Positions 6,984 through 51,461 of a stretch of 64,000 bases of DNA are shown one piece after another; the first letter of the stretch is position 1, and the number at the start of each line of letters is the position of its first letter. The notes beneath the pieces were generated by a model. That model saw nothing but the letters and a program-made list of their open reading frames with translations. It searched no databases and was not told where the DNA came from. The stretch lies in the NCBI GenBank assembly GCA_019347805.1, contig JAHWKR010000012.1:4473-68472 (forward strand), read 5' to 3'. The position numbers were made by a program, and so were the translations under genes. The DNA is from Methanobacteriota archaeon. Lineage in GTDB: Archaea > Thermoplasmatota > E2 > JACPAO01 > JAHWKR01.

Positions 6984-7126
6984 CGGTGCTCGTTGCGGTC
7001 CCCTCCCTATCCCGTACCCTTAAAACAGACCCTCTCGTAGGCCGCGGCGTGGCGCCTCCCGAGAAGGACCGTCTGCCTGGCGACGAGGACGACAAGGGCC
7101 TGCCGACCACCGATGGTGAGGAGACG

Positions 7127-10085: not shown

Positions 10086-10096
10086 GCCCGCCAGCC

Positions 10097-10810
10097 TCAT
10101 TCGAGCGGTATGGGCGGAGGCCCGTCGTGCGGTTCGCCCAACCTGGCCTCGGTGATCTCCCACCAGCCGGCGTCGCGGTGCCAGTGGGGTTCGGCGGACA
10201 CGACCTCGAGGGGGCGTCGGAACCCGGGTCCGTCGGTGACGAGGGTCTCGTATTCGCCGCCTTCGCCGGCGATGTTGAAGCGGAACCGTTCCGCCTGCCG
10301 TTCCAGTGTCGTGAGGGCGCGCCGGGTCAACTTCCGGCCGAGCCAGCCGCGGCCGAGTCCGTCGGTGGCGGTGGCGACGATGTGGATGTGGAAGCGGGCG
10401 GCTATGAGGCTGTGCACGTAGGCGTGCGGGTCCTTGTGCCAGAGCGGGGCGAAGGTCTTGAGACCGAGCCGGTGTCCGATGCGTTCGATGCGGGTGCGCT
10501 GGTATTCGGATGCGATGGCCCCTGAGACGACCGCGTCGGCCTGCGTCTCGTCCCGGGCGCGCCGAAGGAGCGATCCGAGGTCTTCCAGTTCCGTCTCCTG
10601 CTCGCCCTCGGTCTTGCCGGTGAAGAGGGGGACCTCGAGGGCTTCGGCGAGGAGTGCGGTCCAGCGTGTGTTGGGCCGGTGGAACATGTGCGAGTCCTCC
10701 CCGACGACCTCCAACGTGCAGGCGCCCACCACGTCCCAGCCATGCAGGCGCGCGATGTGGAGCGCGGCGACGCTGTCTTTGCCACCCGAAAGGAGGGCGA
10801 GGACCTTCAC
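10097..10810 (-). CDS. dph6: Diphthine--ammonia ligase (PP-loop)
   Basis: LSGGKDS PP-loop, SHMFH, GAIASEYQRTRIE, GEGGEYETLVTDGP; GTG start at 10810. Confidence 0.9.
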   Translation of the reverse strand: MKVLALLSGGKDSVAALHIARLHGWDVVGACTLEVVGEDSHMFHRPNTRWTALLAEALEVPLFTGKTEGEQETELEDLGSLLRRARDETQADAVVSGAIASEYQRTRIERIGHRLGLKTFAPLWHKDPHAYVHSLIAARFHIHIVATATDGLGRGWLGRKLTRRALTTLERQAERFRFNIAGEGGEYETLVTDGPGFRRPLEVVSAEPHWHRDAGWWEITEARLGEPHDGPPPIPLE

Positions 10811-10987
10811 AGGCTGGCCGACCTGGTGGCGATTCTTGAGGGTTCCGGACGTCCGGCATGGTCGGTACAGTCTGGTGGTTTCCGTGGGGAAAGTGCGGAA
10901 GATGATGATATCGTAGCCGGATGTCACGGGAAGTCCTCTTCTTTCCTGTCGTTCTCCCTATGACACGCATTCCCGAACGTGATGGTT

Positions 10988-11035
10988 GCAAGCAAACAAT
11001 CCTTTTATGCAAGAAGACAATCGGCAAGAAACAGG
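10988..11035 (+). promoter_or_regulatory. Three direct repeats flanking a TATA box in the dph6/TrmB divergent region
   Basis: GCAAGCAAACAATC (10988), GCAAGAAGACAATC (11009), GCAAGAAACAGG (11024), with TTTTAT at 11003-11008. Confidence 0.55.
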
Positions 11036-11046
11036 TGGAGCCGGGA

Positions 11047-12402
11047 TTGCACTCGAACACGACACCGGAAGAGCGCGTCTCGACGCTCCAATCGTTCGGA
11101 TTGACGGAGAACCAGGCCAAGGCGTACCTGGCCCTCCTGGAACTCGGCCGTGCGACCGCGAGCGCCCTCAACAAGCTCTCCGGTGTGCCACGGAACAAGG
11201 TCTATTCGGTCGTCGAGGAGTTGAACGAGAAAGGGCTCGTCGAGATCGTCCTTGAGGACCCGATCGTCTTCGAGGCGCGTCCGGTCACACGGTACCTCGA
11301 CCTGCTCGCCTCCGAACTGGAATCGAAACGGAGGGACCTGAAGGCGAGCATGCCACGGCTCGCTGATGAGTTCCAGATCAAGGCCACCCTCTCCGAGGAC
11401 GACCTTCAGGGCGGCTCGTTCCGGATCTACAAGGGCCGGCGTGCCGTGCTCCAACAGCACAGCCGCATGAACCGGGACGCGAAAGGGAGCGTCAAGGTGG
11501 TATGCACCCCGAGCACGCCCGCGCGGATGCTCGCCTCTGACATGCTCGGCGACTACCCGGACCTGGAGGCGGTGCGGTTCGAGATCTTCACACCGCTCAC
11601 AAAGAAGAACATCCCGGCCGTAAAAAGCCTCTTCGAGCGTCTCGGTCGCGCGATCCGGGTCACCACCGGTTCTCCGCGCAACGTCATCATCAAATTGGTC
11701 GACGACAAGCAGGTCTTCTTCACGCATGTCATCCCGGACACGGAGTCCACGACCCAGGGCGACGATGTCGGGGTCTGGACCGACAATCCGGTCTTCCTGC
11801 AGCTTGCGACCGAGCTCATCGAGCGCGCCAAGGAGCGCAGCCAGGAGTTCCACACCGCACGGCTCGCGCTCGAGGCGGACCAGCCGTTCCCGGAGATGCG
11901 GGTCCTCCAGGACCCGACGGAACATCGCGAGCTCTTGATGCTCGGGCTCATGCAGGCGAAGGAGATCATGGCGGTGACGGACGGGTCGATGCTCCTGCGG
12001 GGGATGGCCTCCATGGCCGACCCTTCGTTCCGCGCCAACATGGAGCAGCGTGAGGTCCGCATCCGGCTCGTCACCCGCGTGACACAGGAGATCCTCAAGG
12101 CGGTCACAGACCGGCCGAACATCGAGTTGCGTCACCTCGACTCGGTCCCGGGCAACTTCATCGTCTTCGGCGACCGCGTGATCCGCACACACCGGATGGA
12201 CCCGGGAGCGGAGGACCCGTTCGAGGTCGGCAGCCTGACGTTCTATTCCACGCTCCCCGGCGTCGTCGTCGAGGCCAAGGACCACTTCGAGCGCCTATGG
12301 CAGGCCGCCGTCCCGACCGGCGAGCTCGACCCGGCGGAACTGCCGAAGGCGTCGCGTCCGGACCGCGACAAGGGCACGCCGGAAGAGGAAGCCGTCGCCT
12401 GA
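11047..12402 (+). CDS. TrmB-family regulator with apparently duplicated C-terminal effector domain
   Basis: FGLTENQAKAYLALL...GVPRNKVYSVVEEL HTH; two segments ending in IKLVDDKQVFF/GVWTDNP and FIVFGDRVIR/FYSTLPGVV...HFERLWQAA; TTG start after GGAG. Confidence 0.85.
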   Translation: MHSNTTPEERVSTLQSFGLTENQAKAYLALLELGRATASALNKLSGVPRNKVYSVVEELNEKGLVEIVLEDPIVFEARPVTRYLDLLASELESKRRDLKASMPRLADEFQIKATLSEDDLQGGSFRIYKGRRAVLQQHSRMNRDAKGSVKVVCTPSTPARMLASDMLGDYPDLEAVRFEIFTPLTKKNIPAVKSLFERLGRAIRVTTGSPRNVIIKLVDDKQVFFTHVIPDTESTTQGDDVGVWTDNPVFLQLATELIERAKERSQEFHTARLALEADQPFPEMRVLQDPTEHRELLMLGLMQAKEIMAVTDGSMLLRGMASMADPSFRANMEQREVRIRLVTRVTQEILKAVTDRPNIELRHLDSVPGNFIVFGDRVIRTHRMDPGAEDPFEVGSLTFYSTLPGVVVEAKDHFERLWQAAVPTGELDPAELPKASRPDRDKGTPEEEAVA

Positions 12403-16038: not shown

Positions 16039-16569
16039 TCAGCGGTAGACGCCGACCGCGTAGCCACCGCGCGCCGTGAGCTCGATATCCAGGGTCCAGC
16101 GGCCCGGGAACGGGTCGTCGACCGCGTACCAGTGGTCTTCCTGTTGTTCCTTGTGGCCGTCGAAGTGGGTGGCGGCGACGCTGCGGCCGAGCGGGTCGCG
16201 CAAGCGCATGTCCACCTCCCCGTGCAGGTCGAAAAGGAGCGACACGCGGAGCGAATCGGTGCGCGCGGCGACATCGAACGTGCGCCGGGTGTCCTCTTCT
16301 CCGTTGAGCAGGTTGTTCCAGCGGGTGTCGGCGTCCCCGTAAGCGGTCTGGACGTCTTCGTCCTCGATGCCCCCCGGGGCGCAGAACCCGTCCCGGTCGT
16401 GGGTGTGGGAATGGTCGTGGTCGGACTCGCTGCCGTGATGACGCTCACGATGATCCTCATGGGAGCGGTCGTCGTCATGGTCGGACCAGTCGGCGTCGGA
16501 GACGTCCATGCAGCCGGAGAAGAGAAGGGAGGACACAAGAAGGGCCAGGAGTACGGGTCTTGTCGTCAT
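16039..16569 (-). CDS. Lipoprotein with His/Asp-rich tract and PPC-like beta-sandwich
   Basis: Lipobox FSGC; DHDDDRSHEDHRERHHGSESDHDHSHTHD; VDMRLRDPLGRSV...PFPGRWTLDI. Confidence 0.75.
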   Translation of the reverse strand: MTTRPVLLALLVSSLLFSGCMDVSDADWSDHDDDRSHEDHRERHHGSESDHDHSHTHDRDGFCAPGGIEDEDVQTAYGDADTRWNNLLNGEEDTRRTFDVAARTDSLRVSLLFDLHGEVDMRLRDPLGRSVAATHFDGHKEQQEDHWYAVDDPFPGRWTLDIELTARGGYAVGVYR

Positions 16570-16794
16570 CACGCTACCACACCAGCCATCGATGCAGCGG
16601 GGATAAGGCGACTGGCGAGAACGTTGGAACGTCAGGTGGCCGAAGGATCCGGTAAGCCGCCGTACCCACGACACCCGACCGAAAGAGGGTGCCCCCTTCT
16701 CACACACGTCAGGCCCCCTCGCCTCCCACCGCAGAGCTTATCCACCCCAGCCGCAGACCCTGGTTCCATCCCCTTCATCGCTCCGCCCGAACCC

Positions 16795-27990: not shown

Positions 27991-28449
27991 ATGATCGGAA
28001 CGCCGAAGGGAGAACAGGATGTGCCGCGCGCGGTGACCCTCGGGTCCGCGGAGGACCGGCTCGTCGAGACGGCGTTCAGCCTCAGTTCGCCCCGCCGGGC
28101 GGCGCTCCTCAAGGAGCTCATGGCGGCGACGGGACCGCTCACCGTCGACGAACTGTCCGAGCGTGTCGGGACACCGGAATCGGACCTGGTGAAGCATCTT
28201 GAGGCGCTCTGCGCTGCGGGGCTCGCCGAGGAGGGCCGAAAGGGTCTCAGGCGCAAGCGTGTCTACCACACGACCCTTTCGGAGGTGGAGATCCGGTTCT
28301 TCGGTAGTGACAAACCGGAGGCGAGTCGCGAGCGCACGAACCGCATCGTCGAGCGCGGGGCGCGCGAGCAGACGCGTCGGAAGCGGCGCCTGGAGAAGCG
28401 CGAGGCGCAGATCGAGCGCCGGCGAGCGAAGCTCGATGACGACGGCTAG
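27991..28449 (+). CDS. ArsR-like winged-HTH protein with basic coiled-coil C-terminus
   Basis: LSSPRRAALLKEL..LTVDELSERVG..LVKHLEALCAAGL; R/K/E-rich tail. Confidence 0.75.
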   Translation: MIGTPKGEQDVPRAVTLGSAEDRLVETAFSLSSPRRAALLKELMAATGPLTVDELSERVGTPESDLVKHLEALCAAGLAEEGRKGLRRKRVYHTTLSEVEIRFFGSDKPEASRERTNRIVERGAREQTRRKRRLEKREAQIERRRAKLDDDG

Positions 28450-28527
28450 TTGAAACGTAGTGCTGTATTCATGACAGCGACTCCTTGTTGGCAAATAAGT
28501 AGTTCTTTCTACGATATAGAACTCTGT

Positions 28528-29559
28528 CTAGACGCGTCTTTTCCGACCACCGTCTTTCTGTAATGGCTCATAGTCGAAGCCATTCCATAATGCACCCGGG
28601 CGGAAAATTTGGTATTGGTTCTTGCCTTCCTGGTAAGTTCGTCCATTCTGCGTCCCCCCCTTTCCGGCTGTTGGGAACCTGCCAACGGCACCGCGAACAT
28701 AATCTTCAACCAACTCAGCGCAGAGCCATTTACGGTTGAGTCGGTGACTCACCTCACCGGTCACACAGCTTCCTGCAAACGGATCAAGAACAAAGTCGCC
28801 AACATCTGTGAGCATCCGGATGAACATTTCAGGAAGGTCGGCCGGAAACCGAGCCGGATGTGGTTCAATTCCTTGTTCCTTGCAATACCGTAAATATGAG
28901 CTGTTGCTCTCAGTATTCGCCAGAGCAATCAAGTTAGGTGGAATCGAAGCGCCATTGTCGCGGTCGAATTTGGTACTGATTTCATGACCGGAAGGACGCT
29001 TCATCGACTTGTAACCGTTTTCGAGGAGGTCTTTCATGCTTTGGCTGTAAGGTTGAAGGACCCGTCTGTTGTCTGAACGGGGCCACGGCGATGGAGAAAG
29101 CCACCATACGCAGTTCACCGCATCCTTTACACGCACCCGGCGGATATTGACCCACTCAGCCGGCGTGGGAAGTTTCGACGGGTTCCACCAATAGAACTCC
29201 TGTGCAAGATGGAATCCAAACTCCTCACAGAGCATGATAAGAAGTTTGAAGTGGTACAGACTACGGGTTGGTTGACCTGGAATCCAAGAACCACCGATAT
29301 CGATGACTAGACTCCCTTGGTCATCGAGTACCCGGCGAAACTCTTTCGCGAAGGGGCGGAACCAGTCCAGATATTCCTCAGCCGGCGGATTCCCGTATTC
29401 CTTTTTGCGGACAAGCCCAAACGGTGGACTCGTCATGATCAGGTTAACGCTCTTGTCTTTGACCCGGGTTCGGAGCACATCGAGAGAATCGCCGACGTAG
29501 ATTCGGCCCGATTTTGTTCGATGGTACATTCGGGGCCTCGTCAGGCGAGCTTGAGTCAT
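28528..29559 (-). CDS. Site-specific DNA methyltransferase, beta class (N4-cytosine/N6 type, PvuII-like)
   Basis: TSPPF (motif IV) precedes HPARFP and LDPFAGS (motif I); low GC. Confidence 0.92.
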   Translation of the reverse strand: MTQARLTRPRMYHRTKSGRIYVGDSLDVLRTRVKDKSVNLIMTSPPFGLVRKKEYGNPPAEEYLDWFRPFAKEFRRVLDDQGSLVIDIGGSWIPGQPTRSLYHFKLLIMLCEEFGFHLAQEFYWWNPSKLPTPAEWVNIRRVRVKDAVNCVWWLSPSPWPRSDNRRVLQPYSQSMKDLLENGYKSMKRPSGHEISTKFDRDNGASIPPNLIALANTESNSSYLRYCKEQGIEPHPARFPADLPEMFIRMLTDVGDFVLDPFAGSCVTGEVSHRLNRKWLCAELVEDYVRGAVGRFPTAGKGGTQNGRTYQEGKNQYQIFRPGALWNGFDYEPLQKDGGRKRRV

Positions 29560-30938
29560 CCCTTGTCCTCCTTCATTTGGAGCGCTTTCAGTTTAGATGC
29601 GTGTATTGCTTCCCTATGAAAAGCGTCGACAATCGTGGCAGGAGAATCTTTGATGCGTTCAAGGTCTGCACCATTGAGCATAACGATACAAAGATTGGTG
29701 TCCCCCATGACCTTATTGGCGAACTTCTTGGCCTCCGGACCAATTTCCCCTGTTGTAACCATAACTATCACGTTGCTCTTCAGGGAATGCGTCAGTCCGA
29801 CTTCTTTGGCTACGTCATCGAGACTAACCTTCGCTGTGTTCTTGCACTGGATCTGCCACCGTGAAAAGACGAGTCTTTCTGCTTCGAAAATCAAATCTAC
29901 TTCAGCGCCACCTGTTTCGGCCCCCCGCAGACGGGTTGCCACATAATTCATATCAAGCAGCCGCATCAACTTGAACGCCAACGCCTCAAGCGCCAGACCT
30001 CCTTTGTGGTGATCTTTGGACTTCAACTCACGCAGAATTTCGCTCAGCGGCCTCCTGAGCAAACGGCGTAAACCAGGTGCCACCTGCTTCTCGATCTGGT
30101 CGAGGATAGGTAGAACGACATCCTTCTCCAATTTCCGCGTACGGCTTACAAGGAATGGTTTGGCACCACGTCCGGCCTGTCTCGTACCACGTTCTAGTTC
30201 AATATAACCGATCTTTTCCAAAGGATATAGGATGTCTTTGGGTAGGTTCTTCTCATTGAAGACCACGCCGTATGTTGCAGATGCCAATCTTTCGATTTCG
30301 TTCGACGGGAACGGGCCTTCTTCACCTATGTTGACCAACGTCTTCACGTACGCGATCTGTTCGCTCGTCAATTCCGCCAGCGCTTCCAGTTCCACTTCCG
30401 TAATGCCGGCCAGTTTCTCAAAGCGCTCAATGTCGACTTGCCACTCGGAGGAGAAGACACCAGCTTTTTGAAGCCACAACTTCATGATGCTAGGGTGCTT
30501 CCCCCCTCTGGGGAAATGTATTCCACGTTCGTCGAGCCAAATCCGGAGCTTTTGGAGCGTGACAGTCTCACCCGCTACCTGCATATCGAGCACACACTGG
30601 ACAAGATTCACACCATGTAGGTGATGCAAGATGTGCTGTGCCAATCGCTCATGCAGACGATTCTTCTCCTCGCGGAGTTCGTAAAGCTCTCTGCCGAGCT
30701 TGGTCAGGTGTCCTTCCTTGTCGATCAAGCCATAGGCTTGCATCCCAAGTTTGGTGTTGTTGGCGAGTTTGCGTTGATTTCTAACGCTGGTTTTGTGGCT
30801 CTCAAAATACTCGGTTCGCACGGCGTCCTCGAATGCCCGCCAGTCGCCGTCGTGTTGGGCGGCCAGCTCAAGGACTTTTTGAAGATCCACTTGAGAGGGT
30901 GAGAATTCGCTTCCGAATGGCAGAGTGCTCTTTGGCAT
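29556..30938 (-). CDS. Restriction endonuclease with C-terminal Mrr-like PD-(D/E)XK domain
   Basis: GLALEALA...GGAEVDLI...IQCKN; ATGA-coupled to the MTase; low GC. Confidence 0.85.
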   Translation of the reverse strand: MPKSTLPFGSEFSPSQVDLQKVLELAAQHDGDWRAFEDAVRTEYFESHKTSVRNQRKLANNTKLGMQAYGLIDKEGHLTKLGRELYELREEKNRLHERLAQHILHHLHGVNLVQCVLDMQVAGETVTLQKLRIWLDERGIHFPRGGKHPSIMKLWLQKAGVFSSEWQVDIERFEKLAGITEVELEALAELTSEQIAYVKTLVNIGEEGPFPSNEIERLASATYGVVFNEKNLPKDILYPLEKIGYIELERGTRQAGRGAKPFLVSRTRKLEKDVVLPILDQIEKQVAPGLRRLLRRPLSEILRELKSKDHHKGGLALEALAFKLMRLLDMNYVATRLRGAETGGAEVDLIFEAERLVFSRWQIQCKNTAKVSLDDVAKEVGLTHSLKSNVIVMVTTGEIGPEAKKFANKVMGDTNLCIVMLNGADLERIKDSPATIVDAFHREAIHASKLKALQMKEDKG

Positions 30939-31191
30939 GATTTACCTGGGCAAGTTTCGATCTGGCGTTGCTACATGCAGCCGATTTTAGCGAGTCCCCC
31001 ATTGTCAGGCACTCGTAGACCGGGCAGCGTCGCTTGGCATCTCCATCCTCAAAACGCGGCACAGCAGATACAGTATTTAAGCAGCCCGGGGGGATGGGCG
31101 AAAGTACTCGCGAGCTTCTATCCCCGAGGAGAGCCCGACCAAAAATCATGGGTCCCACAACGACTTAGACGCCCCCCTCTTTCGCCCCGCC

Positions 31192-32331
31192 GTGGCCCTT
31201 CCCGAGCCGTTCGACCGCGTCCGCCGCACGATCCCCGCGGCGCATCGCCACACCTATCTGAACACGGCGGCGACGAGCCCGCTTCCGGACGCGGTGCGGG
31301 AAGCGGTCGCGGCGAGCATGCAGCGCCGGGCGTGGGACGGGGACCTGGTCTTCGATGACGCCTGCGCCGACGTGGACGCGACACGTGCCCTCGTCGGACA
31401 GCATCTCGGTGTCGAAGCGGACGGCATCGCCTTCATGAAGAACACGGGCGAGGGCATCAATCATGTCGCGAGGAGCCTGGACTATCTCGAAGGCGCGAAC
31501 GTCGTCACCACATCCCTCGAGTTCCCTTCCAACCTCCTGCCGTGGACCGCGCTCAGGAAACAAGGTGTCGAGGTGCGCGTCGTCGAACCCGACGACGACG
31601 GACTCGGCGTGACACCGGAGCGGATGGCGGAGCATGTCGACCGCGACACGACGCTGGTGGCGGTCTCCTGGGTCACTTTCCAGACCGGCTATCGGCATGA
31701 TGTCGACGCCTTTGGCCGCATCGCGCACGACCATGGCGCGCTGATGCTGGTGGACGGCATCCAAGGCCTGGGTGCTCTCTGTCCTCCGCGCATGGACCAC
31801 ATCGATTTCTTCGCGAACGGGGGCCACAAATGGTTGATGGCCCCGTTCGGGGTCGGCTTCCTCTATGTCCGGCCGGAGCTCGCCCGCACACTGGTCCCGG
31901 ACCATGTGGGTTGGTGGAGCCTGGCGGACACCGACACCTACGACCCTGACAACGTCACCCTCGCAGGCTCTGCGCGCCGCTTCGAGATCGGCAACCTGAA
32001 CTTCCCGGTCATCGCGGGCCTCGACGCGGCGTTCCGCATCATGCCGGACATCGAGGACGTCGAGCGGCGCATCCTCTACCTCACGACGCGCCTCATGCGG
32101 GGGCTCGTCCGCCACGGCCGGCTCGCGTCGCCGGTGGCGCTCGAAAAACGTTCCGGGATCGTCAACCTCGCCACACCGGACGCAAAGGCGCTCCACGCAC
32201 GGCTCGCCAAAGACGGCATCATCGCAAGCCTGCGCGGCGGGGGCGTGCGCTTCTCACCGCACTATTGGAACACGGAAGAAGAGCTCGAGAAGGTCCTCGC
32301 GCTCTTCGAGGGCACCCTCCAGGCGTCGTAG
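31192..32331 (+). CDS. Class V PLP aminotransferase / C-S lyase-like
   Basis: YLNTAATSP, NTGEGI, EFPSN, DGIQGLG, GGHKWLMAP; lacks the C-terminal catalytic Cys of IscS/SufS. Confidence 0.88.
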   Translation: MALPEPFDRVRRTIPAAHRHTYLNTAATSPLPDAVREAVAASMQRRAWDGDLVFDDACADVDATRALVGQHLGVEADGIAFMKNTGEGINHVARSLDYLEGANVVTTSLEFPSNLLPWTALRKQGVEVRVVEPDDDGLGVTPERMAEHVDRDTTLVAVSWVTFQTGYRHDVDAFGRIAHDHGALMLVDGIQGLGALCPPRMDHIDFFANGGHKWLMAPFGVGFLYVRPELARTLVPDHVGWWSLADTDTYDPDNVTLAGSARRFEIGNLNFPVIAGLDAAFRIMPDIEDVERRILYLTTRLMRGLVRHGRLASPVALEKRSGIVNLATPDAKALHARLAKDGIIASLRGGGVRFSPHYWNTEEELEKVLALFEGTLQAS

Positions 32332-33972: not shown

Positions 33973-35571
33973 ATGAAGTCGCTCCGCGTCCTTGTCATCC
34001 TGCTCGCCCTTCTGGCCGTTCCGCTCTCGGGTTGCCTGACACAACTCTTCGACGACGGGCCGGTGACCCAGAGCGTCCTTGCGCGCAAGGTCTCCATCGT
34101 CCTCGACGAGAACACCTTCGACGACATGGACACGAGGTTCGAGGATGTCGTCCGCACCCGCTTCGAGTACACCCATCCTGGCGGCGACACGTCGGTCGTG
34201 GGCCTGCAGGTGCGTTACACCGATGACACAGGGACGGACCGCGTGCGACCGCTTTCCGAGTTCACCGCCAAGTCCACGCTCACGGAGGGCGATGTGGTCA
34301 CCATCGACCGGGTCAACATCACGAGCGACCTCGTCATCGAACAGGACGGCGCGGTGCTCGCGGAACGGCTCGGTCTGCGCCGGGCCTGGCTCGAGATCGA
34401 TGGTACCCCGATCCCGCTCCACACTTCAGAGACCGGCACGGCGGTCTGGTCGCTCACCGGCACGTCGGGCTTCAAGTTCGATGTCAAGGATGTCGACTTG
34501 GGCGAGTCCGGCCGCGTCGAGTACGCCAAGGGCGATTTCTCGGGCACGTCCGACGGCACGTTCAGCGCCGCGACGACCAGAAGCGGCAGCAGCACGGACA
34601 TCAACTACGAGACCAAGATCAAGGGTCTGTTCGATGCGTTCGCCGACAGCCGCATCCATTCCGATGGCGAGACGATCGAGACCGGTTTCGACATCGACGC
34701 CGAGAGCCGCCTCGACGGCACCTGGCTGATGGGCTTCCGCGATCGGGCGCTCTCCCGCACGGGTGGCGGCGGCTCCGTCTTCGCCGACGGCACGGTCCAC
34801 GTCTGGGACCCGGAACATCCGAAGAGCATGGGCTGGGAACCAGAGGACGTCGAGCACCCGTTCATCGACGAGAAGGAGCCGTTCCGGGAGGAATCGTATG
34901 AGACCGATCCCTACATGGAGGCCGACCAGGAGTACCTCGCCTTCATGGAGCGCCTCTGGGGCATGACCCTCGATGTCGGTGACGACTTCCGCTTCACCGC
35001 GTCCTACGACGACGCCGGCACGGGCTTCCTCTTCGAGGTCGTCATCCAGGTGACGGAACGCGTCGCCCGCAACGTCGGCTTCGGCAATGTCGACACGTTC
35101 CGCGTCCACGAGACGATGCGGTTCGAGGCGAGCGGGTCGTCCTACGGCTCCGGCTCCTATGACCTCGCCAGTTTCACCACCTGGCTCGACACCCGTACCT
35201 ATCTGCCGGTCCACGCGCAGGTCGCCTACACGACGACCTACGACGAGGAACAGATCCGTGCCTTCTACGGCGCGTTCGAGGATGACCTTCCCTACGACCT
35301 GCCGGAGGACCTCCTCTTGGCCATCAACAGCGAGGCGGTGCTACGGCTCGAGGAATATTCGGGTGACCTCGCCGTCTCACCGCTCTTGGGCATCACCGGT
35401 CTCTCCGGCCCGCTGATGATGATGGGCGCCGGGATGGGCATGGGGATGATGGGCGGCCCGTACGGGGACGAGACCTATTACGAAGACGAGGCGTACGTCC
35501 ACGACGACGAGTGGGAAGAGGGACCGTCCGATTGCTATTGGGACGAGAACGGCGACTACGTCTGTCCCTAG
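33973..35571 (+). CDS. Large lipoprotein, beta-rich, with Met/Gly stretch and acidic Cys-containing tail
   Basis: MKSLRVLVILLALLAVPLSGC lipobox; C-terminal MMMGAGMGMGMMGG and CYWDENGDYVCP. Confidence 0.8.
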   Translation: MKSLRVLVILLALLAVPLSGCLTQLFDDGPVTQSVLARKVSIVLDENTFDDMDTRFEDVVRTRFEYTHPGGDTSVVGLQVRYTDDTGTDRVRPLSEFTAKSTLTEGDVVTIDRVNITSDLVIEQDGAVLAERLGLRRAWLEIDGTPIPLHTSETGTAVWSLTGTSGFKFDVKDVDLGESGRVEYAKGDFSGTSDGTFSAATTRSGSSTDINYETKIKGLFDAFADSRIHSDGETIETGFDIDAESRLDGTWLMGFRDRALSRTGGGGSVFADGTVHVWDPEHPKSMGWEPEDVEHPFIDEKEPFREESYETDPYMEADQEYLAFMERLWGMTLDVGDDFRFTASYDDAGTGFLFEVVIQVTERVARNVGFGNVDTFRVHETMRFEASGSSYGSGSYDLASFTTWLDTRTYLPVHAQVAYTTTYDEEQIRAFYGAFEDDLPYDLPEDLLLAINSEAVLRLEEYSGDLAVSPLLGITGLSGPLMMMGAGMGMGMMGGPYGDETYYEDEAYVHDDEWEEGPSDCYWDENGDYVCP

Positions 35572-35574
35572 GTC

Positions 35575-36828
35575 CTATGCGCCCCGCATCCCGTCGAGGA
35601 TGTTGAGCCGCGACAGGCGCCGTCCGGTCGCCCACACGGAGGCGACCGACGCCAACGCCACCGCCACACCGACGAGGAGGAAGGCGAGCGGGCGCACCGC
35701 CCAGGGGATGGTGAGCCGTGCTTCGGTAGTCATCACCGGGATGGGTGGTGCAAGGAGCCCCAGAAGCCCGGTGACGAGCCCGGCGGCGAGCGCGCCTGCG
35801 AGGACGCAGCCGACAAGGAGGAGTGTGTATGCGGCGACCACGGTACGGACCGGGATGCCGATCGCGCGCAGCGACGAGACGATGGGTCCGTCACCGCGCA
35901 CAAGGACGCCGGTCTCGTGGACGAGCCAGACCAGGAGCACCGCAAGGAAGACGGCGAGCGTCAGGGCGCCGGCGGCATAGGCCAAGACGAGCACGCCGCC
36001 GATGTAGTCGAAGGCGAACGCTTCCGAGGTGCGGGTCTCGGTCTCGGGGTCCAATCGGTGGGCGACGGCGGCCGCGCGTTCGATGTCGCCGCCGGAGACG
36101 ACGAAGGTGTTCGCGACCGCGTCCTTCTCGTTGTGGCCAAGGAGCAGGCGAGCGGCCTCGATGGGGACGAAGGCGGTGAACTTGTCCAGAGGCTCAAGAC
36201 CTGTGTCGAAGACGCCGACGACGACCACCTGCAACGTGATGGGCAACGAGCCGGGGCCGCTCTGGAGGTGTCCGCTTGTGAGGGTGAGCGGGTCACTGAA
36301 GACCGGCGATTCGTCCTGGGGGAGGGTGAGGTTGAGCCGCCCGACGGTCGGCTTGCCGATGAGGATCGGGGTGTAGGCCCGCCCCGTGTCGGGGGCGAAG
36401 ACCTCCCGACCCGAGAGCCGCTCGCCCCATTCCATGTATCGCTCGATGCGACCCGCCTCTTCCGGGTCCTGGGGATCGATCCCGACCAGGAGGCCCGCGG
36501 AGTTGTCGGCGAAGCTCTCGCCGCGCACGGTGATGAAGGTCGATTCGAGGCGCACGGAGACGGTCCCGCCGGCACCGCGAAGTTCTTGCGCCACCGCTTT
36601 CGGATCGTCCCAGCTTTTTCCGGCGCCGAGATCCGCCGTGCCGCGGGTGACACGCAGGTCGCCCGAGACGGTCGCCGCAAGGGGCGCGGTGATGGCCTCC
36701 CGTGTGCCTTCGACGACGGAGACGAGACCGAAGAAGCCGAACAGGCCGATGGCGAAGACCGTGGCAAGGAGCAGGTAGCGCCTGCTGCGGGCCCGGAACT
36801 GGCCGCGCGCAAGGAGCCGGACGACCAC
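35575..36828 (-). CDS. FtsX/MacB-family (LolC/E-like) ABC permease
   Basis: N-terminal TM, large extracellular loop with GLLVGIDP and VVGVFDTGLEPLDKFTAFVPIEAARLLLG, then 3 TMs with SLRAIG; GTG start inferred. Confidence 0.85.
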   Translation of the reverse strand: MVVRLLARGQFRARSRRYLLLATVFAIGLFGFFGLVSVVEGTREAITAPLAATVSGDLRVTRGTADLGAGKSWDDPKAVAQELRGAGGTVSVRLESTFITVRGESFADNSAGLLVGIDPQDPEEAGRIERYMEWGERLSGREVFAPDTGRAYTPILIGKPTVGRLNLTLPQDESPVFSDPLTLTSGHLQSGPGSLPITLQVVVVGVFDTGLEPLDKFTAFVPIEAARLLLGHNEKDAVANTFVVSGGDIERAAAVAHRLDPETETRTSEAFAFDYIGGVLVLAYAAGALTLAVFLAVLLVWLVHETGVLVRGDGPIVSSLRAIGIPVRTVVAAYTLLLVGCVLAGALAAGLVTGLLGLLAPPIPVMTTEARLTIPWAVRPLAFLLVGVAVALASVASVWATGRRLSRLNILDGMRGA

Positions 36829-36850
36829 GGGGGCGGGACCGGGCGGTGCC

Positions 36851-36866
36851 ATAAAGTATCTCTTGA
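36851..36866. promoter_or_regulatory. Shared AT-rich core of a bidirectional promoter (permease / ATPase)
   Basis: ATAAAGTATCTCTTGA is the only AT-rich patch between the two divergent genes; reads TTTATG on the minus strand. Confidence 0.5.
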
Positions 36867-36887
36867 AGGCCCCCGCTCGGGGCGGCC

Positions 36888-37592
36888 ATGGGACCGGTCT
36901 GTGTGCTCCAAGGCGTCCGCCGTCCGTTCCGCATCGGCGACCGGCGCGTCGCCGCGCTGGACGGGGTCGACCTCGTGGTGCAGGAGGGGGCCCAGGTGGT
37001 GGTGACCGGCCCATCCGGTGCCGGAAAGAGCACGCTCCTGCATGTCCTCGGACTCGTGGACGCCGATTTCGAGGGCACCTACCGGTTCATGGGGCAGGAC
37101 GTCCGTCAGACGACCGAAGCGGAGCGCGGCCGTTGGCGCCTCGGCCGCATCGGCTTCGCCTTCCAGGACCTGCATCTCGTGCCGACCCTGACCGCGATGG
37201 AGAACCTGCTCATCCCGCTCCTTGCCGCCGGGACGTCGCGTGCCGCGGCCGACGACCGCGCACGGGACCTCCTGCTCCAGGCGGGCCTCGGGGACCGCAT
37301 GGACCACCTGCCGACCGAGCTTTCGGGCGGGGAACGGCGCCGGGTGGCGTTCGCGCGTGCCCTCGTCAACAAGCCCCGACTTCTTCTCCTGGACGAGCCG
37401 ACGGCCGAGCTCGACGAGGTGTCGGTGCAAGGGGTCCGGGCATTGTTGGAACGGGCGTCGGCGGAGGGCGCGGCGGTCGTGGCGGTGACCCATGATGCCC
37501 GCCTGGTGGTCGATTTCGCCGAACGCTACCAGATGACCTCAGGCCGCTTGGAGCGCCTTGATATGGCGACCCCTCCGTCCCCTTACGGCTAG
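36888..37592 (+). CDS. ABC transporter ATP-binding protein (LolD/MacB-like)
   Basis: GPSGAGKST, IGFAFQDLHL, ELSGGERRRVAFARAL, LLLDEPT, VTHD. Confidence 0.93.
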   Translation: MGPVCVLQGVRRPFRIGDRRVAALDGVDLVVQEGAQVVVTGPSGAGKSTLLHVLGLVDADFEGTYRFMGQDVRQTTEAERGRWRLGRIGFAFQDLHLVPTLTAMENLLIPLLAAGTSRAAADDRARDLLLQAGLGDRMDHLPTELSGGERRRVAFARALVNKPRLLLLDEPTAELDEVSVQGVRALLERASAEGAAVVAVTHDARLVVDFAERYQMTSGRLERLDMATPPSPYG

Positions 37593-47420: not shown

Positions 47421-49220
47421 ATGAGCGTGTCGACCGACCGTGCCCTCCCAGGGCGCTGGACCGCGCGACTTCTGACCTTCGCTGTGATCGCGGCCCTCGT
47501 GAGCGTGCCGACCGTCCAGGCCGGTACGAACGATTGGATGTCGTTCCAGAAGGACACGCTCCATCTCGCCAAGGCGGACGGGGCTGATCTCGAGACGCCG
47601 CTCAAACTCGGGTGGCGCAAAGCCCTGGAAGGCGAGATCCGGGCGAGCCCGGTCATCTCGGGCGACACGCTCTACATCGGGACCATGGACGGCATGTTCT
47701 ATGCCCTCGACAAGGATTCGTCCCGCACCCGCTGGTCCTTCGACGCCGGCGCTCCCATCCGTGGGACGGCGACCATCGAGAGCGACCGCATCTATTTCGC
47801 GACCTTCGACATCTCGTCTACGCCTTCGAAGGGCCAGCTTTATGTCCTGCAGCGCAAGGACGGCAGCATCATCGCCCAGAAGGAGCTCGATGGCGCTTCT
47901 TGGGGCGGTCCGGTCGTGCAGGCGGGCAAGGTGTTCGTCGGTACGGAATCAGGATCGCTCATCGCTTACGAGACGGAGGGTTTCTCGCAACTTTGGACCT
48001 TCTCGACGTCACAGTTCGGCATCGCCAAGGGCGAGGTGCGGACGGTGCCGATGCTCTATGAGAACAAGGTCTATTTCGGTTCCTTCAACCATTTCTTCTT
48101 CGCCGTGGACGCGGGCGGCAAGGCCGGTACCACGACCACGACGGTGAGTTGGATGGACAAGGTCGGCGACATCGTCTATTCGAGCGGCGTCATCGACCCG
48201 AACACGATGGGCGGGACCGCGTTCCTCGGGAGCTATGACGGTCAACTCTACGCCTTCGCGAGCGGTGCCAAGTCGAACACGACCGGTTGTCCGCACCAGG
48301 ACGGCCGCAAGGACCATCCGGCGAACGCTCCGTGCTCGGCGGCGATCCGCTATCGCTATGACGCCGGGGCGAGCATCGCGGTCGCGCCGACGGTGGCGAA
48401 CGACCGCGTCTTCTTTGGTGACCTCGACGGCAAGTTCCATTCCATCCAGGCACGCTACGGCAGGACCAATTGGATCCACGACGTCGGCGCGCCGATCCGT
48501 TCCTCCCCCGCGGTGGTGAACCACACCATCGTCTTCGGTGCCGATGACGGCAAGCTCCATGTCCTCAAGGAGGCCCCGAACGGGCTGACCCTCGTGTCGA
48601 CCTCCACGTTCGACCTCGGCGGCAAGGTCCATTCCAGTCCCGCCATCTCGGCCGGCACGGTCTATATCGCCACCCAGGACGGCGTGCTCTACGCGGTCCT
48701 GGACGCCAAAAAGGCGCCTCCGGAGGTCAAGCCGGACCCGAAACCGGACCTCATGGTGGACAAGGTGGTCTCCGAGCCGGACCCGCCGGTCGCCGGCGAT
48801 CCGCTCAAGCTCAATGTCACCTACAAGAACCTCGGAGAGGCACGCGCCGGCACCGTGACGCTTCGCCTCTACGCGGACGATGTCCTCGTGGACGAGACCA
48901 ACGTCACCATGACCGCGCTCTCGACCATGACCCATGTCTTCGAGGTGGCCTCCTTCCCGGGCGAGGCGACCTATCGCATCGTCATCGACGAAGGCGGCTT
49001 CCTGGACGACGCCGACAGCTCGAACCACGACCTCGAAGTGACGCTCGCGGACCCGTTCGGCGCGACCGTGGGTGGAGGCTCCGGTCAGGACGACCAGGCG
49101 CCGACGGTGAACGACGCGTCGTCCGAGAAGAAGGAGGACGAGGACATCCCGGCGCCCGGCGTCGTGACGATCCTCGGCGTCCTCGCCGCCGCGCTCGTCG
49201 CCCTGCGCCGCCGCCGCTGA
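47421..49220 (+). CDS. Secreted PQQ-like beta-propeller + CARDB/Ig domain with C-terminal sorting signal
   Basis: Signal peptide; repeated SP.V..G.VY.GS.DG..YA..W units; PDLMV CARDB; PAPG-TM-RRRR C-terminus. Confidence 0.88.
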   Translation: MSVSTDRALPGRWTARLLTFAVIAALVSVPTVQAGTNDWMSFQKDTLHLAKADGADLETPLKLGWRKALEGEIRASPVISGDTLYIGTMDGMFYALDKDSSRTRWSFDAGAPIRGTATIESDRIYFATFDISSTPSKGQLYVLQRKDGSIIAQKELDGASWGGPVVQAGKVFVGTESGSLIAYETEGFSQLWTFSTSQFGIAKGEVRTVPMLYENKVYFGSFNHFFFAVDAGGKAGTTTTTVSWMDKVGDIVYSSGVIDPNTMGGTAFLGSYDGQLYAFASGAKSNTTGCPHQDGRKDHPANAPCSAAIRYRYDAGASIAVAPTVANDRVFFGDLDGKFHSIQARYGRTNWIHDVGAPIRSSPAVVNHTIVFGADDGKLHVLKEAPNGLTLVSTSTFDLGGKVHSSPAISAGTVYIATQDGVLYAVLDAKKAPPEVKPDPKPDLMVDKVVSEPDPPVAGDPLKLNVTYKNLGEARAGTVTLRLYADDVLVDETNVTMTALSTMTHVFEVASFPGEATYRIVIDEGGFLDDADSSNHDLEVTLADPFGATVGGGSGQDDQAPTVNDASSEKKEDEDIPAPGVVTILGVLAAALVALRRRR

Positions 49221-49298: not shown

Positions 49299-51461
49299 GT
49301 GTCCAGCCCAGCCTCCGGTCGGAAAGGGATCCACCGGATCGCCCTGATGCTCGTCGCTCTCCTGTTCCTGGTGACGGCAGCGAGTCCTGCCCTGGCAGCG
49401 GAACGACAGGTCGAGACCGACACGAGCACGATCACGACGCGCACGGTGGTCGTCCCCGCACCGGCCGTGGCGGAACTTCCGGATGGCACGCTGCGTGGCG
49501 TGACGTCCGTGCTCGAGGTGACGGTCCGCAACGGCACGGGGGACGTCTTCATGGACACGCGTCCTCTCGCCCAGCTCGATATGCAGGGTTCGGCGCGCCT
49601 TGCAGCGGCCACAGCCGCCTCCATCGCGGGTGTCCCGTTCGACCAGCACGACCATTTCGTCACGATGCGCGCGGCCGCCCCCATCGTCGGCGGGCCGAGC
49701 GCGGGCGGCACGATGGCGGTGGCCTTCACTGCGCTCCTTGCAGGGTGGCCCCTACGGGACGACGTCCTCATGACCGGGATGATCAACCCGGACGGTACCA
49801 TCGGACCGGTCGGCGGCATCCTGGAGAAGGCCGAGGCGGCGCACGAGGCAGGCGCCTCCCTCTTCCTCGTCCCCGAAGGGCAGGCGATCGTCGTCCGGCA
49901 AGTGCATGAGGTCCACGAGGAGGGGGGGTTCCAGGAGGTGCGGACACGCCAGGAGGAGGTCGACGTCAGGCAGTACGCCGCCGACAAGTGGGACCTCGAG
50001 GTGCGGGAGGTGGCGGACGTGCAGGCTGCCGTGGAGAACTTCACCGGTGTGCGCATCGTGCGCGAGACGCCGAAGGGGGACCTCGACCATCCGCTTTTCG
50101 AGGAAGTGATGGGGGAAGCGAGCCGCGACCAATTGAGGGACGCCCGCGCGGAACTGGCGCGTGTCGAGACGGAACTCGATGCGGCAGGTCTTGCCGAGGC
50201 GGGACGCCCCCAGACGGAGGAGTCGCTGAGGGGACTCCTGGACCGGGTGCGCACACGTCTCGATCGCGCCGACGCCGCCGTGGGGGAGAAGGGCTTCTAC
50301 ACCGCGTCGAGCCTGGTCTTCCAGTCGCGCATCGACCTGCGCAAGGCGGACATCGTCCTGCGGGCGTTCGCGGCCGACGACCAGTCGACGTTCCTCATCG
50401 GGTTCAGGGACACCCTTGAGGCGGAGTTGGAAGAGGCAAGGAAGGAAGCGGCGGACACCACACCGCAAACGGTGACCGGCCTTGAGGCGGTGGGCGCCGC
50501 CCAGGTGCGGGTCATGGAGGCGAAAGACCTCCTGGCGGCGGCCGACGGCGCGCTCGAAGCAGGCGACGTCCCGGACGCCATCGACCGTTTGGCGTTCGCC
50601 GAGGAGCGGCGGCGTTCCGTCGTCTGGTGGTTGGGCCTCGCTGAGGAACTGGACGAGATCGGCGCGGGCGCCACCCTTGAAGCGCCACCGGATCGGCTTG
50701 CGCGCGACACGCTCACGGCGGCGCTCCAGGCGGTCGGATACGCGGAGGTGCTGATCGGCCAGACCGGCGCGGGGACGCTTTCCTCGGCGCTCCTTGCCGA
50801 GGCGGGGCAGGATCTCGAGAGCGCGCTCGAGGCGGGTCGTCTTGGCCTCCAGGTGGGTTCGATGTATCTCTCCTTGGAGGCCCAGGTGGGGGCCCACGCG
50901 GCGCTCTCGCTGGTCGGCAGTGACGCGCTTCTTGCGGACCGCGTCGAACGCTCACGGGACCGGGCGCTCCTCGAGATCGAGCGCAGCCGCGGTGCCGGGG
51001 TCGAACCGGTGCTCGCCGTCTCCTATGTCGATTTCGCGTCGAGCCTTGTCGACTCCTCCCCCGTCGACGCTCTTGTCCTCTACGGCTTCGCGGCGACAGT
51101 GGCGCGCACGAGCACCCTCCTCACCGGTGTCGGGCCGTGCGGCCTGAGCGGCGATTGCGGTGCACAGGTGGTCTTGCCGGAGAATGAGCCGGAGCCGCTC
51201 TGGTCAGGCCCTGAGGCCGCGGTCGTGGCGGTGGGGATGATCGCTTTCGTCGGTGGCGCGACGGCCGGCGTGCTGGCGGTGCGCGGTCGCGACGCGGATC
51301 GCACCACGCAACACGACAGCCACAGCGCCACCGGCCCGGTCGTCCGCCCGCTCCGGCCCCGCCGCATGGTGGCCCTCCCGGAGGGTCGCCACCACAACGG
51401 AGCGGCCACCCAGCGGACACATCAAGGCGCCATACTCGCGGGCCGTCGGGCGCGACCATAA
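49299..51461 (+). CDS. Secreted/membrane-anchored Lon-like (S16) Ser-Lys protease
   Basis: Signal peptide, GDVFMDTRPL, VGGPSAG, TGMINPDGTIGPVGGILEK, long helical region, C-terminal TM. Confidence 0.88.
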   Translation: MSSPASGRKGIHRIALMLVALLFLVTAASPALAAERQVETDTSTITTRTVVVPAPAVAELPDGTLRGVTSVLEVTVRNGTGDVFMDTRPLAQLDMQGSARLAAATAASIAGVPFDQHDHFVTMRAAAPIVGGPSAGGTMAVAFTALLAGWPLRDDVLMTGMINPDGTIGPVGGILEKAEAAHEAGASLFLVPEGQAIVVRQVHEVHEEGGFQEVRTRQEEVDVRQYAADKWDLEVREVADVQAAVENFTGVRIVRETPKGDLDHPLFEEVMGEASRDQLRDARAELARVETELDAAGLAEAGRPQTEESLRGLLDRVRTRLDRADAAVGEKGFYTASSLVFQSRIDLRKADIVLRAFAADDQSTFLIGFRDTLEAELEEARKEAADTTPQTVTGLEAVGAAQVRVMEAKDLLAAADGALEAGDVPDAIDRLAFAEERRRSVVWWLGLAEELDEIGAGATLEAPPDRLARDTLTAALQAVGYAEVLIGQTGAGTLSSALLAEAGQDLESALEAGRLGLQVGSMYLSLEAQVGAHAALSLVGSDALLADRVERSRDRALLEIERSRGAGVEPVLAVSYVDFASSLVDSSPVDALVLYGFAATVARTSTLLTGVGPCGLSGDCGAQVVLPENEPEPLWSGPEAAVVAVGMIAFVGGATAGVLAVRGRDADRTTQHDSHSATGPVVRPLRPRRMVALPEGRHHNGAATQRTHQGAILAGRRARP

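Follow-up and report, generated by a model that had tools for sequence, protein, structure and literature searches.

Does the archaeal cell envelope host a machinery comparable to the bacterial Lol system for handling lipoproteins? The question is raised by a 64,000-nucleotide stretch of the archaeal contig JAHWKR010000012.1 (assembly GCA_019347805.1), hereafter the window, in which three neighboring genes encode a large lipobox protein, an ATP-binding cassette (ABC) permease and an ABC ATPase. A sequence-only reading of this locus had proposed a Lol-like lipoprotein-handling module. Our analysis upholds part of this view: the module is real and its motor is Lol-like, but nothing marks it as a true Lol sorting pathway. 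Established here are how the genes are arranged, to which fold class each of the three proteins belongs, and that their linkage is conserved. To judge from structure models, the transporter is a Type VII ABC (the MacB/LolCDE/FtsEX class) with a LolC/E-like permease architecture, and its constant companion is a predicted lipid-anchored, beta-barrel-like lipoprotein of an undescribed family. Motors of this kind are known; what appears to be new is the family of the partner, along with its obligatory association, in archaea, with a Type VII ABC.

A conserved three-gene module

The three open reading frames (ORFs) lie exactly where the sequence-only reading had placed them, on alternating strands. 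The lipobox protein gene (33973-35571, + strand, 532 amino acids (aa)) runs from an ATG at 33973 to a TAG stop at 35569-35571. Converging on it is the permease gene (35575-36852, - strand, 425 aa), whose stop codon occupies 35575-35577, so that the two stops face each other 3 bp apart (35569-35577), as had been reported. The ATPase gene (36888-37592, + strand, 234 aa, ATG at 36888) starts head-to-head with the permease gene across a spacer of 35 bp, well within the 60 bp announced earlier, and the peptide motifs that had been quoted for the permease and the lipoprotein were all found where expected. Since the 3-bp convergent spacing leaves no room for terminators, the lipoprotein and permease transcripts must overlap at their 3' ends.

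We assessed the linkage of these genes in 13 distinct informative loci, including the window, using gene tables and local hidden Markov model (HMM) searches. The lipoprotein gene adjoins the permease gene in all 13, down to 27% lipoprotein identity. Ten loci share the window arrangement, with lipoprotein and permease genes tail-to-tail (spacing in relatives ranges from a 4-bp overlap to 16 bp) and permease and ATPase genes head-to-head wherever the contig reaches the ATPase. The remaining loci display other gene orders. Permease and lipoprotein genes are head-to-head in L013/L014 and in L018 (28-29% lipoprotein identity), the ATPase gene of L013 being tail-to-tail with that of the permease; in L019, the permease gene precedes the lipoprotein gene on the same strand. 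The three-gene adjacency is thus conserved and has survived two rearrangements. We reject chance adjacency, as the linkage holds over three gene orders at lipoprotein identities of 27-35%. Linkage that survives rearrangement at such divergence is strong evidence of a functional unit, and strongly suggests a functional partnership between the lipoprotein and the ABC transporter. The count stands at 13 loci because profile scans of metagenomes and genome contigs returned few: one metagenome locus with the lipoprotein profile, and two loci in genome contigs of the GTDB species set.

Conservation is restricted to the module itself. Between the window and the related locus L001, identity reaches 59% for the ATPase, 51% for the permease and 35% for the lipoprotein. 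A wider conserved operon was considered and rejected: when ten L001 genes were compared with the window, counterparts existed for those of the module and for none of the other seven.

The divergent spacer between the permease and ATPase genes (36853-36887) holds a conserved AT-rich element, which reads AAAGTATCTC or CATAAAGTATCTC in the window and CATAAGGTTTTATCG in relatives. In L001, L007, L009, L011, L012 and L015 this element lies immediately against the permease start as annotated, while L006 has a looser AT-rich stretch at this place. It is located at 5940-6000 in L001, 4740-4773 in L007, 792-844 in L009, 9121-9176 in L012, about 4960-4980 in L011 and about 6290-6310 in L015. Its distance to the ATPase start is about 22-41 bp in the five relatives where this start is mapped, and 22-26 bp in the window, L001, L007 and L012. 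Judging from its sequence and position, the element may act as a TATA-like bidirectional promoter shared by the permease and ATPase genes. Homologues back an ATG at 36852 as the permease start, with a GTG at 36828 as a possible alternative; because the AT-rich element is read as a bidirectional promoter, the permease may start at this GTG on a leaderless mRNA.

A Type VII ABC transporter with a LolC/E-like permease

The ATPase belongs to the MacB/LolD/FtsE clade and has intact Walker A, Q-loop, LSGGE signature, Walker B with catalytic glutamate, and H-loop motifs (107 bits against Pfam ABC_tran). It had been called LolD-like, and LolD (TIGR02211) is indeed its best-scoring NCBIfam model. Yet the score of 190 bits is below the cut-off of 307.75, PRK11629 likewise reaches 169 for a cut-off of 360, and the MacB, FtsE, YbbA and DevA models come within about 25 bits of LolD. 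Against solved structures in the PDB, scores are 157.7 bits for the MacB nucleotide-binding domain (NBD), 156 for LolD, 149.5 for YbbA, 138 for MJ0796 and 123 for FtsE; by this measure the MacB and LolD matches are indistinguishable.

The permease is more elusive in sequence searches. The window protein scores 25 bits against Pfam MacB_PCD, for a gathering threshold of 27, and produces no Pfam FtsX match and no NCBIfam match at E<=0.1; a PDB profile search retrieves LolE at an E-value of about 0.5. Its 11 homologues (44-94% identity) are somewhat more informative. Several match PF12704 and/or PF02687, three of the 12 permease sequences match lolCE (TIGR02212; best E 5.9e-7) and two match the Gram-positive FtsX model, lolCE being the only NCBIfam family matched by several homologues. 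With neither ATPase nor permease reaching the equivalog cut-offs, orthology to Lol proteins is not supported.

Structure prediction gives a clearer picture. We built an AlphaFold2 (AF2) model of the permease from the 12-sequence alignment (predicted local distance difference test (pLDDT) 80.7) and compared it with solved structures using Foldseek. Hydropathy and the model agree on four transmembrane segments (29-47, about 285-311, 338-356 and 389-407), with an ectodomain of ~220 aa (about 64-275) of the Sabre/Porter type inserted between the first two. The best match is LolE (9rlc_E, E 1.6e-20, template modelling (TM)-score 0.70/0.72), the leading LolE/LolC matches spanning TM-scores of 0.66-0.72. 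Query-normalised TM-scores are 0.59-0.70 for LolE/LolC in most states of LolCDE, 0.54 for HrtB, 0.51-0.53 for the Streptococcus pneumoniae MacB-like protein, 0.50 for YtrF, 0.45-0.51 for MacB, 0.47 for YbbP, 0.39 for FtsX (E 1.5e-4) and 0.3 for BceB, the poorest match. The isolated LolE ectodomain (5udf) aligns to the model with a target-normalised TM-score of 0.70. The designation of the permease as LolC/E-like is therefore correct at the level of structure, LolE and LolC being its closest matches, but it does not extend to sequence, where identity to LolC/E is about 15% and scores stay below the Lol equivalog cut-offs.

A conserved motif of the ectodomain, VVGVFDTGLEPLDKFTAFVPIEAARLLLG (36136-36222, - strand; residues 211-239), lies at the end of the Porter subdomain, before the second transmembrane segment. 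Residues V210, V212, G213, F215, T217, G218, P221, D223, F225, T226, P230 and I231 are invariant in the 12 homologues. The 'hook' with which LolC recruits its carrier has a candidate counterpart in the model, namely a hairpin of strands 97-108 and 119-125 that is conserved and bears the motif NSAGLLVG. Four transmembrane segments, a large Sabre/Porter-type ectodomain between the first and second of them, a C-terminal transmembrane bundle of the FtsX type, and an ATPase of the MacB/LolD/FtsE clade with intact catalytic motifs together place the transporter in the Type VII class; it is not orthologous to any characterised system. As the module has a sole permease gene, the permease presumably forms a homodimer.

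A putative tethered beta-barrel partner

The lipobox protein begins with MKSLRVLVILLALLAVPLSGC. A Sec-type signal peptide and lipobox (MKSLRVLVILLALLAVPLSG-C; 33973-34035, + strand) comprise an L-S-G-C motif at residues 18-21, which conforms to the pattern [LVI][ASTVI][GAS]C and makes Cys21 the predicted lipidation site. The protein has no Pfam or NCBIfam match, and a word-indexed search, with the single sequence or a 6-member profile, returned one relative only (84% identity). An exhaustive HMMER search of 1.84 billion representatives was far more productive, yielding a family of 73 clusters at E<=1e-3, of which 37 at E<=1e-30. The clusters hold 1-5 sequences each, named 'hypothetical protein' at the source, and full-length members measure about 470-760 aa. 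In an alignment of 56 family members, conservation of the lipobox residues G20 and C21 is 90% or higher, and only G106, R132, W139, G336 and D337 are invariant; going by their nature, these invariant residues are not catalytic-looking. The window protein is acidic (isoelectric point 4.18, 19% Asp+Glu).

The AF2 model of the lipoprotein is confident (pLDDT 88.9, predicted TM-score 0.83). It shows a helix for the signal peptide, then a small N-terminal beta-sandwich of seven strands (residues 36-132; 34078-34368, + strand; pLDDT >90), which holds G106 and R132, followed by a large antiparallel beta-meander of barrel- or spiral-like shape (residues 155-463; 34435-35361, + strand). According to the DSSP assignment of the model, the meander has 11 long strands of 10-24 residues (about 20 in most cases), besides a single shorter one and short helices at 319-329 and 425-433. 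Across the family, one face of the long strands is about 55-70% hydrophobic, versus about 15-30% for the other.

The sequence-only reading had likened the C-terminal half of this protein to a DUF3108/LolA-like beta-half-barrel. The top Foldseek match in the PDB is EipB/DUF1849 (6ntr_A, E 1.2e-4, probability 0.97), whose superposition is poor (TM-score 0.14/0.24, root mean square deviation 17.6). Outer membrane protein (OMP) barrels, BPI/LBP and LptD come next, all with TM-scores <0.25. LolA, LolB and LppX are absent from the top 50 matches. Profile searches of the PDB with the whole family or with the C-terminal half retrieved nothing significant, and in particular no LolA, LolB, LppX, EipB or YmcC. 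A LolA fold is thus not borne out, although a weak local similarity may lie below rank 50; Pfam gives no LolA or LolB match, and a single C-terminal half out of 52 matches LolA_like (E 0.054). EipB, a spiral of 14 overlapping beta-strands around a helix, is described by its authors as similar to LolA/LolB but different from them in its fold as a whole (bioRxiv 10.1101/551135), and we consider from the model that the 'LolA-like' likeness of the archaeal protein stops at the general class of open meander barrels. The porin matches led us to consider a membrane-embedded barrel of the OMP type; we rejected it, the protein being very acidic and its TM-scores to OMPs being <=0.15.

The C-terminal half of the barrel (residues 296-470; 34858-35382, + strand) had also been compared to DUF3108. 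It contains the motifs TLDVGDDFRF (332-341), NVGFGNVDTFRV (367-378) and TTWLDTRTYLPV (402-413), as well as the invariant pair G336-D337. DUF3108 is matched at E<=1 by eight of 56 full-length members and by 12 of 52 C-terminal halves (best E 3.6e-4, sub-threshold); searched member by member, four of the halves also match DUF3108_like. According to a published description (PMC4364669), DUF3108 proteins adopt the YmcC-type beta-barrel fold. The comparison is thus sustained by weak, recurrent matches in the family, which suggest that the resemblance is non-random, but these all remain sub-threshold and the window protein itself has none.

After the barrel, all members have a hydrophobic stretch rich in Gly, Ala and Met that opens with (A/V)-S/A-P-x-x-G. 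In the window protein, this Gly/Met/Ala-rich segment (AVSPLLGITGLSGPLMMMGAGMGMGMMGG, residues 467-495; 35371-35457, + strand) has a mean hydropathy of 1.0-1.5, under the usual transmembrane threshold, with acidic residues on both sides, and two hydrophobic helices are predicted at 470-493 with low pLDDT. It could span the membrane as a marginal anchor, lie in the outer leaflet or dock into the permease. Some members end there, while most add a Cys-containing beta domain of ~100 aa with two conserved cysteines; the window protein has instead a disordered acidic tail of 37 aa with two cysteines (CYWDENGDYVC; 35458-35568, + strand).

When a profile of 22 long tails was searched against the PDB, the first three ranks went to type IV pilins of archaea (9myg_A, E 0.0042; 8fj5_A, 0.019; 8gi2_A, 0.021), with an alignment spanning the VSPVIGV motif, the helix and the first strand, although only one of the 22 tails matches Pfam Pilin_N (E 0.0082). 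Among the tails of members P0014-P0066, most end in this putative pilin-like module, the window copy keeping only the hydrophobic segment. Such a module at the C-terminus of an exported lipoprotein is unusual, and topologically unlike a real pilin.

These features might suggest that the lipoprotein is the transporter's own cargo, the ABC serving to extract or release the lipoprotein or its pilin-like hydrophobic segment. In its favor are the strict one-to-one linkage and the conserved lipobox, together with another hydrophobic segment that is reminiscent of the helix which archaeal pilins embed in the membrane. We consider this quite improbable: the pilin similarity is marginal (E 0.004-0.02), and linkage persists in the window, where the pilin-like module is truncated. 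Furthermore, we know of no Type VII system dedicated to a single cargo.

The same data bear on a true Lol pathway, in which the ABC would extract lipobox lipoproteins and the barrel would be a LolA/LolB-like carrier to an outer membrane or sheath. Such a pathway would account for a permease structurally closest to LolE/LolC, with lolCE the nearest NCBIfam family for three of 12 sequences, for four lipobox ORFs in the window, for a partner that can be placed, loosely, with the open barrels compared in structure to LolA/LolB, and for the conserved three-gene linkage. It nevertheless conflicts with most of what we observe. ATPase and permease miss the equivalog cut-offs by a wide margin, and neither the top 50 Foldseek matches nor the PDB profile searches contain LolA or LolB. 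The partner, with its predicted membrane anchor, is three times as large as LolA and diverges rapidly (window and L001 share 35% identity in the lipoprotein and 51% in the permease). Predicted to be lipid-anchored, with a second hydrophobic segment near its C-terminus, it does not qualify as the soluble shuttle that a LolA-like carrier would be. An outer membrane has no support here, and a recent survey of archaeal lipoprotein biogenesis mentions no Lol-like step (PMC12462473). The sequence-only reading had seen an argument in the double membranes of some Thermoplasmatota; this finds no support in our data, where the relatives found in the GTDB species set are labelled Halobacteriales and the source is soil. 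We regard a true Lol pathway as very improbable, slightly more so than a transporter dedicated to its own lipoprotein, and the module is no evidence for one in archaea. An analogue in the style of Lol or Lpt, where a LolC/E-like ABC would lift lipid-anchored proteins or ether lipids onto a tethered giant beta-barrel carrier of a new class, bearing a pilin-like module in most members, and on to an outer envelope layer, is somewhat less far-fetched while still improbable. Lipoprotein trafficking is therefore one possibility among several.

A proposed model for extraction and hand-off

What, then, could a LolC/E-like transporter do with a tethered barrel? The explanation we tentatively prefer, at somewhat less than even chances, is that the Type VII ABC extracts a hydrophobic membrane component, whose nature we leave unspecified, with the help of its barrel partner. 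The machine would consist of a permease homodimer with LolC/E-like ectodomains, two copies of the ATPase and the dedicated extracytoplasmic lipoprotein. The latter would sit as a large, acidic, non-enzymatic beta-barrel or spiral on the outer face of the cytoplasmic membrane, held by its N-terminal lipid anchor and possibly by its C-terminal hydrophobic segment as a second tether. On ATP binding, the ATPase dimer would close; this motion would be relayed through the long stalk helices of the first and second transmembrane segments to the ectodomains, which would squeeze a hydrophobic or amphiphilic molecule of the outer leaflet (a lipid, a lipid-anchored molecule or a membrane-active toxin) out of the membrane. 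The molecule would then enter the hydrophobic interior of the tethered barrel. The proposed hand-off would parallel those from LolCDE to LolA and from YbbAP to TesA.

In this model we infer that the permease touches its partner, which way the hand-off runs and what sort of cargo is moved. We favor extraction and hand-off because the permease most resembles the extractors LolC/E, because the lipoprotein looks like a barrel that has one hydrophobic face and no enzymatic character, and because this partner is predicted to be held at the membrane surface. The characterised Type VII ABCs of Escherichia coli each have their own periplasmic partner, namely EnvC, LolA, MacA and TesA (PMC12646458). Since these transporters act via dedicated partners, a barrel lipoprotein acting as partner of the archaeal ABC is the simplest reading.

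Several points weigh against this explanation. The contact between permease and partner is itself deduced. The partner superposes poorly on every solved structure (TM-score <=0.24), hence its ligand cavity is postulated rather than seen. In most loci, the three genes do not form an operon and lie on alternating strands, so that the case for co-expression is carried by the putative bidirectional promoter and linkage alone. A tethered acceptor, moreover, cannot shuttle: it must pass on, degrade or sequester its cargo. Finally, a purely mechanical partner role of the FtsEX type fits the same data.

This mechanical alternative deserves attention. A mechanotransducer of the FtsEX type would move no substrate; its ATP cycle would reshape the tethered barrel, which in turn would act on the cell surface, for instance in remodelling of the S-layer or envelope, or in display or release of the pilin-like C-terminal module. 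Type VII ABCs do include pure mechanotransducers such as FtsEX-EnvC, and here a tethered, multi-domain partner is encoded next to the permease in every informative locus, with an extra pilin-like surface module at the C-terminus of many homologues. The permease model, on the other hand, reaches a TM-score of 0.70 to the extractors LolC/E compared to 0.39 to FtsX; no coiled coil is present in the partner, nor any domain recognisable as an enzyme or as an activator of one; and no hydrolase is conserved in the neighborhood when the window is compared with L001. For these reasons we hold a mechanotransducer to be unlikely, if far from negligible, and retain extraction and hand-off as our preferred explanation.

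Genomic context

The window is a piece of archaeal chromosome, as evidenced by genes for Cbf5 (DKCLD/TruB/PUA domains), an archaeal-type ProRS, aIF2-gamma, ELP3, ThiD-ThiN and DUF63 proteins. It has a GC content of about 65%, contains no rRNA, tRNA or Rfam feature, and a single soil metagenome run accounts for nearly all occurrences of its sequence. The GTDB species set has two relatives, both metagenome-assembled genomes labelled 'uncultured Halobacteriales archaeon'. The L019 proteome is acidic as in haloarchaea (D+E 16.5%, K+R 6.1%), but no such acid shift is seen in the window or in most relatives (D+E 12.8%, K+R 11.5%). Genes flanking the module in the window are unrelated housekeeping genes: a class V aminotransferase, a BirA-like ligase, arginine decarboxylase, ProRS and a SpoU methylase.

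Thiol-redox genes occur near the lipoprotein gene in several relatives, though not in the window. A gene for a membrane-anchored AhpC/TSA-thioredoxin is directly upstream of the lipoprotein gene in L001 (region 9145-12024) and L009 (4102-5876), and L011 (8172-11152) has an ORF matching in size and position. The neighbor is DsbA in L013 (5494-6429) and a thioredoxin in L019 (5122-5496). The L001 AhpC/TSA gene is accompanied by genes for a 180-aa protein and a 361-aa lipobox protein. Such extracytoplasmic redox proteins fit a disulfide in the Cys-containing tail of the lipoprotein and, with it, an extracellular location of this tail. L001 also has a lipobox GDSL/SGNH lipase gene (3364-4209, - strand) two genes from the ATPase, for which tblastn found no counterpart in the window.

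The neighborhood helps in weighing a further alternative, a resistance or immunity pump similar to MacB, BceAB or NisFEG, which would clear membrane-active peptides or xenobiotics with the lipoprotein as an accessory binder of the NisI type. The ATPase scores equally well on MacB and LolD, the source is soil, and the thiol-redox genes near the module in several relatives are typical of envelope stress; moreover, the mechanism would overlap the one we propose, the cargo alone being different. Yet no membrane-fusion adaptor, sensor kinase or regulator, or biosynthetic cluster lies beside the module at any locus, the window flanks (BirA-like ligase, arginine decarboxylase, ProRS) are of the housekeeping kind, and BceB is the poorest structural match of the permease (TM-score 0.3). 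A pump of this kind is thus decidedly unlikely in our view, and extraction of a membrane component with hand-off to the barrel remains the explanation we prefer.

Other features of the window concern its lipobox ORFs and base composition. A pattern scan confirmed the four lipobox proteins previously counted, at 5311-5976 (+), 5973-6983 (+), 16039-16572 (-) and 33973-35571 (+). The first three have no Pfam match. The first two are in tandem with a 4-bp overlap, directly upstream of two DUF63 proteins (6845-8626 and 8793-10085); they are putative genes, as a competing gene call based on GC content at third codon positions exists at 5.3-7 kb. GC content falls to 0.54-0.59, for a background of about 0.65, at about 28000-31200 and at 1-2000. 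The former island includes a gene for an Mrr-type restriction endonuclease domain protein (29556-30938, - strand) and, from its composition, may be horizontally acquired DNA; there is no tRNA gene near it, nor anywhere in the window. Further downstream, a gene for a secreted-looking PQQ/BamB-type beta-propeller with a CARDB domain (47421-49220, + strand) is followed by a gene for a 720-aa protein with a Lon C-terminal protease domain (49299-51461, + strand).

Significance of the module

Identification of the partner has been the key to the function of each characterised Type VII ABC system. In the present module, an archaeal Type VII ABC comes with a partner whose linkage is clear, whose family is undescribed and for which a confident structural model is available. 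Our literature searches found no description of an archaeal Lol-like system or of an archaeal Type VII ABC partner system. The first enzymes of archaeal lipoprotein biology, AliA and AliB, date from 2025, and to our knowledge the fate of archaeal lipid-anchored molecules after their attachment has yet to be described. Should the partner bind lipids or lipoproteins, it would be a first handle on how archaea remove such molecules from their ether-lipid membrane; if it does not, it would still be a new class of partner for mechanotransmission ABCs. The module is rare, forming tiny clusters known from metagenomes only, and has no experimental handle yet, which limits its immediate impact. It is nonetheless a testable entry point into lipid and lipoprotein handling at the archaeal envelope.

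Comparison with known systems

The archaeal module shares with LolCDE-LolA a permease with four transmembrane segments and a Sabre/Porter ectodomain, a separate ATPase, a dedicated all-beta partner with a hydrophobic face, and the presence of lipobox proteins in the genome. It differs in having one permease gene instead of LolC and LolE, although LolCDE has a homodimeric variant, LolDF. The partners differ more profoundly: LolA and LolB have an unclosed 11-stranded barrel with a helical lid in about 180-200 aa, LolA being soluble, whereas the archaeal protein is predicted to be lipid-anchored, is multi-domain, about 530-700 aa long and not detectably related to LolA/LolB. In addition, the host is here an archaeon known from metagenomes only.

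YbbAP-TesA is likewise a Type VII ABC with a dedicated extracytoplasmic partner, and is proposed to extract hydrophobic compounds (PMC12646458). In both systems the partner gene is transcribed apart from the transporter, and the lipobox GDSL lipase two genes away in L001 recalls the pairing of YbbAP with an SGNH hydrolase. However, YbbP is a double-FtsX protein with ten transmembrane segments, the archaeal partner is a non-enzymatic beta-barrel and not an SGNH hydrolase, and the window has no GDSL gene. FtsEX-EnvC/PcsB offers another Type VII parallel, the sole known output of FtsEX being to move its bound extracytoplasmic partner. The archaeal permease, with a TM-score of 0.39 to FtsX against 0.70 to LolE, does not show an ectodomain of the FtsX type (X-lobe); its partner is all-beta and not coiled-coil, and no hydrolase is linked to it.

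With MacAB-TolC and the Gram-positive MacB-like transporters, the archaeal system has in common an ATPase similarity equal to that for LolD, a permease homodimer (presumed here) and MacB_PCD as the only Pfam domain touched by the window permease. Here the differences are an NBD that is not fused to the permease, lower TM-scores and the lack of an adaptor, the gene tables of all loci containing no membrane-fusion (HlyD/MacA) adaptor gene.

On the partner side, EipB/DUF1849 and DUF3108 proteins are also secreted or lipid-anchored meander barrels, with functions that are unknown or related to the envelope. The archaeal protein is double their size, since it adds a sandwich at the N-terminus and a hydrophobic or pilin-like module at the C-terminus, and we know of no pairing of these bacterial families with ABC transporters. 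A last parallel comes from mycobacteria. Although Rv1410 is a major facilitator superfamily transporter and not an ABC, and LprG is a small protein of the LolA/LppX fold, LprG-Rv1410 combines a tethered lipoprotein having a hydrophobic cavity with the transporter encoded beside it, and the two together move lipids outward.

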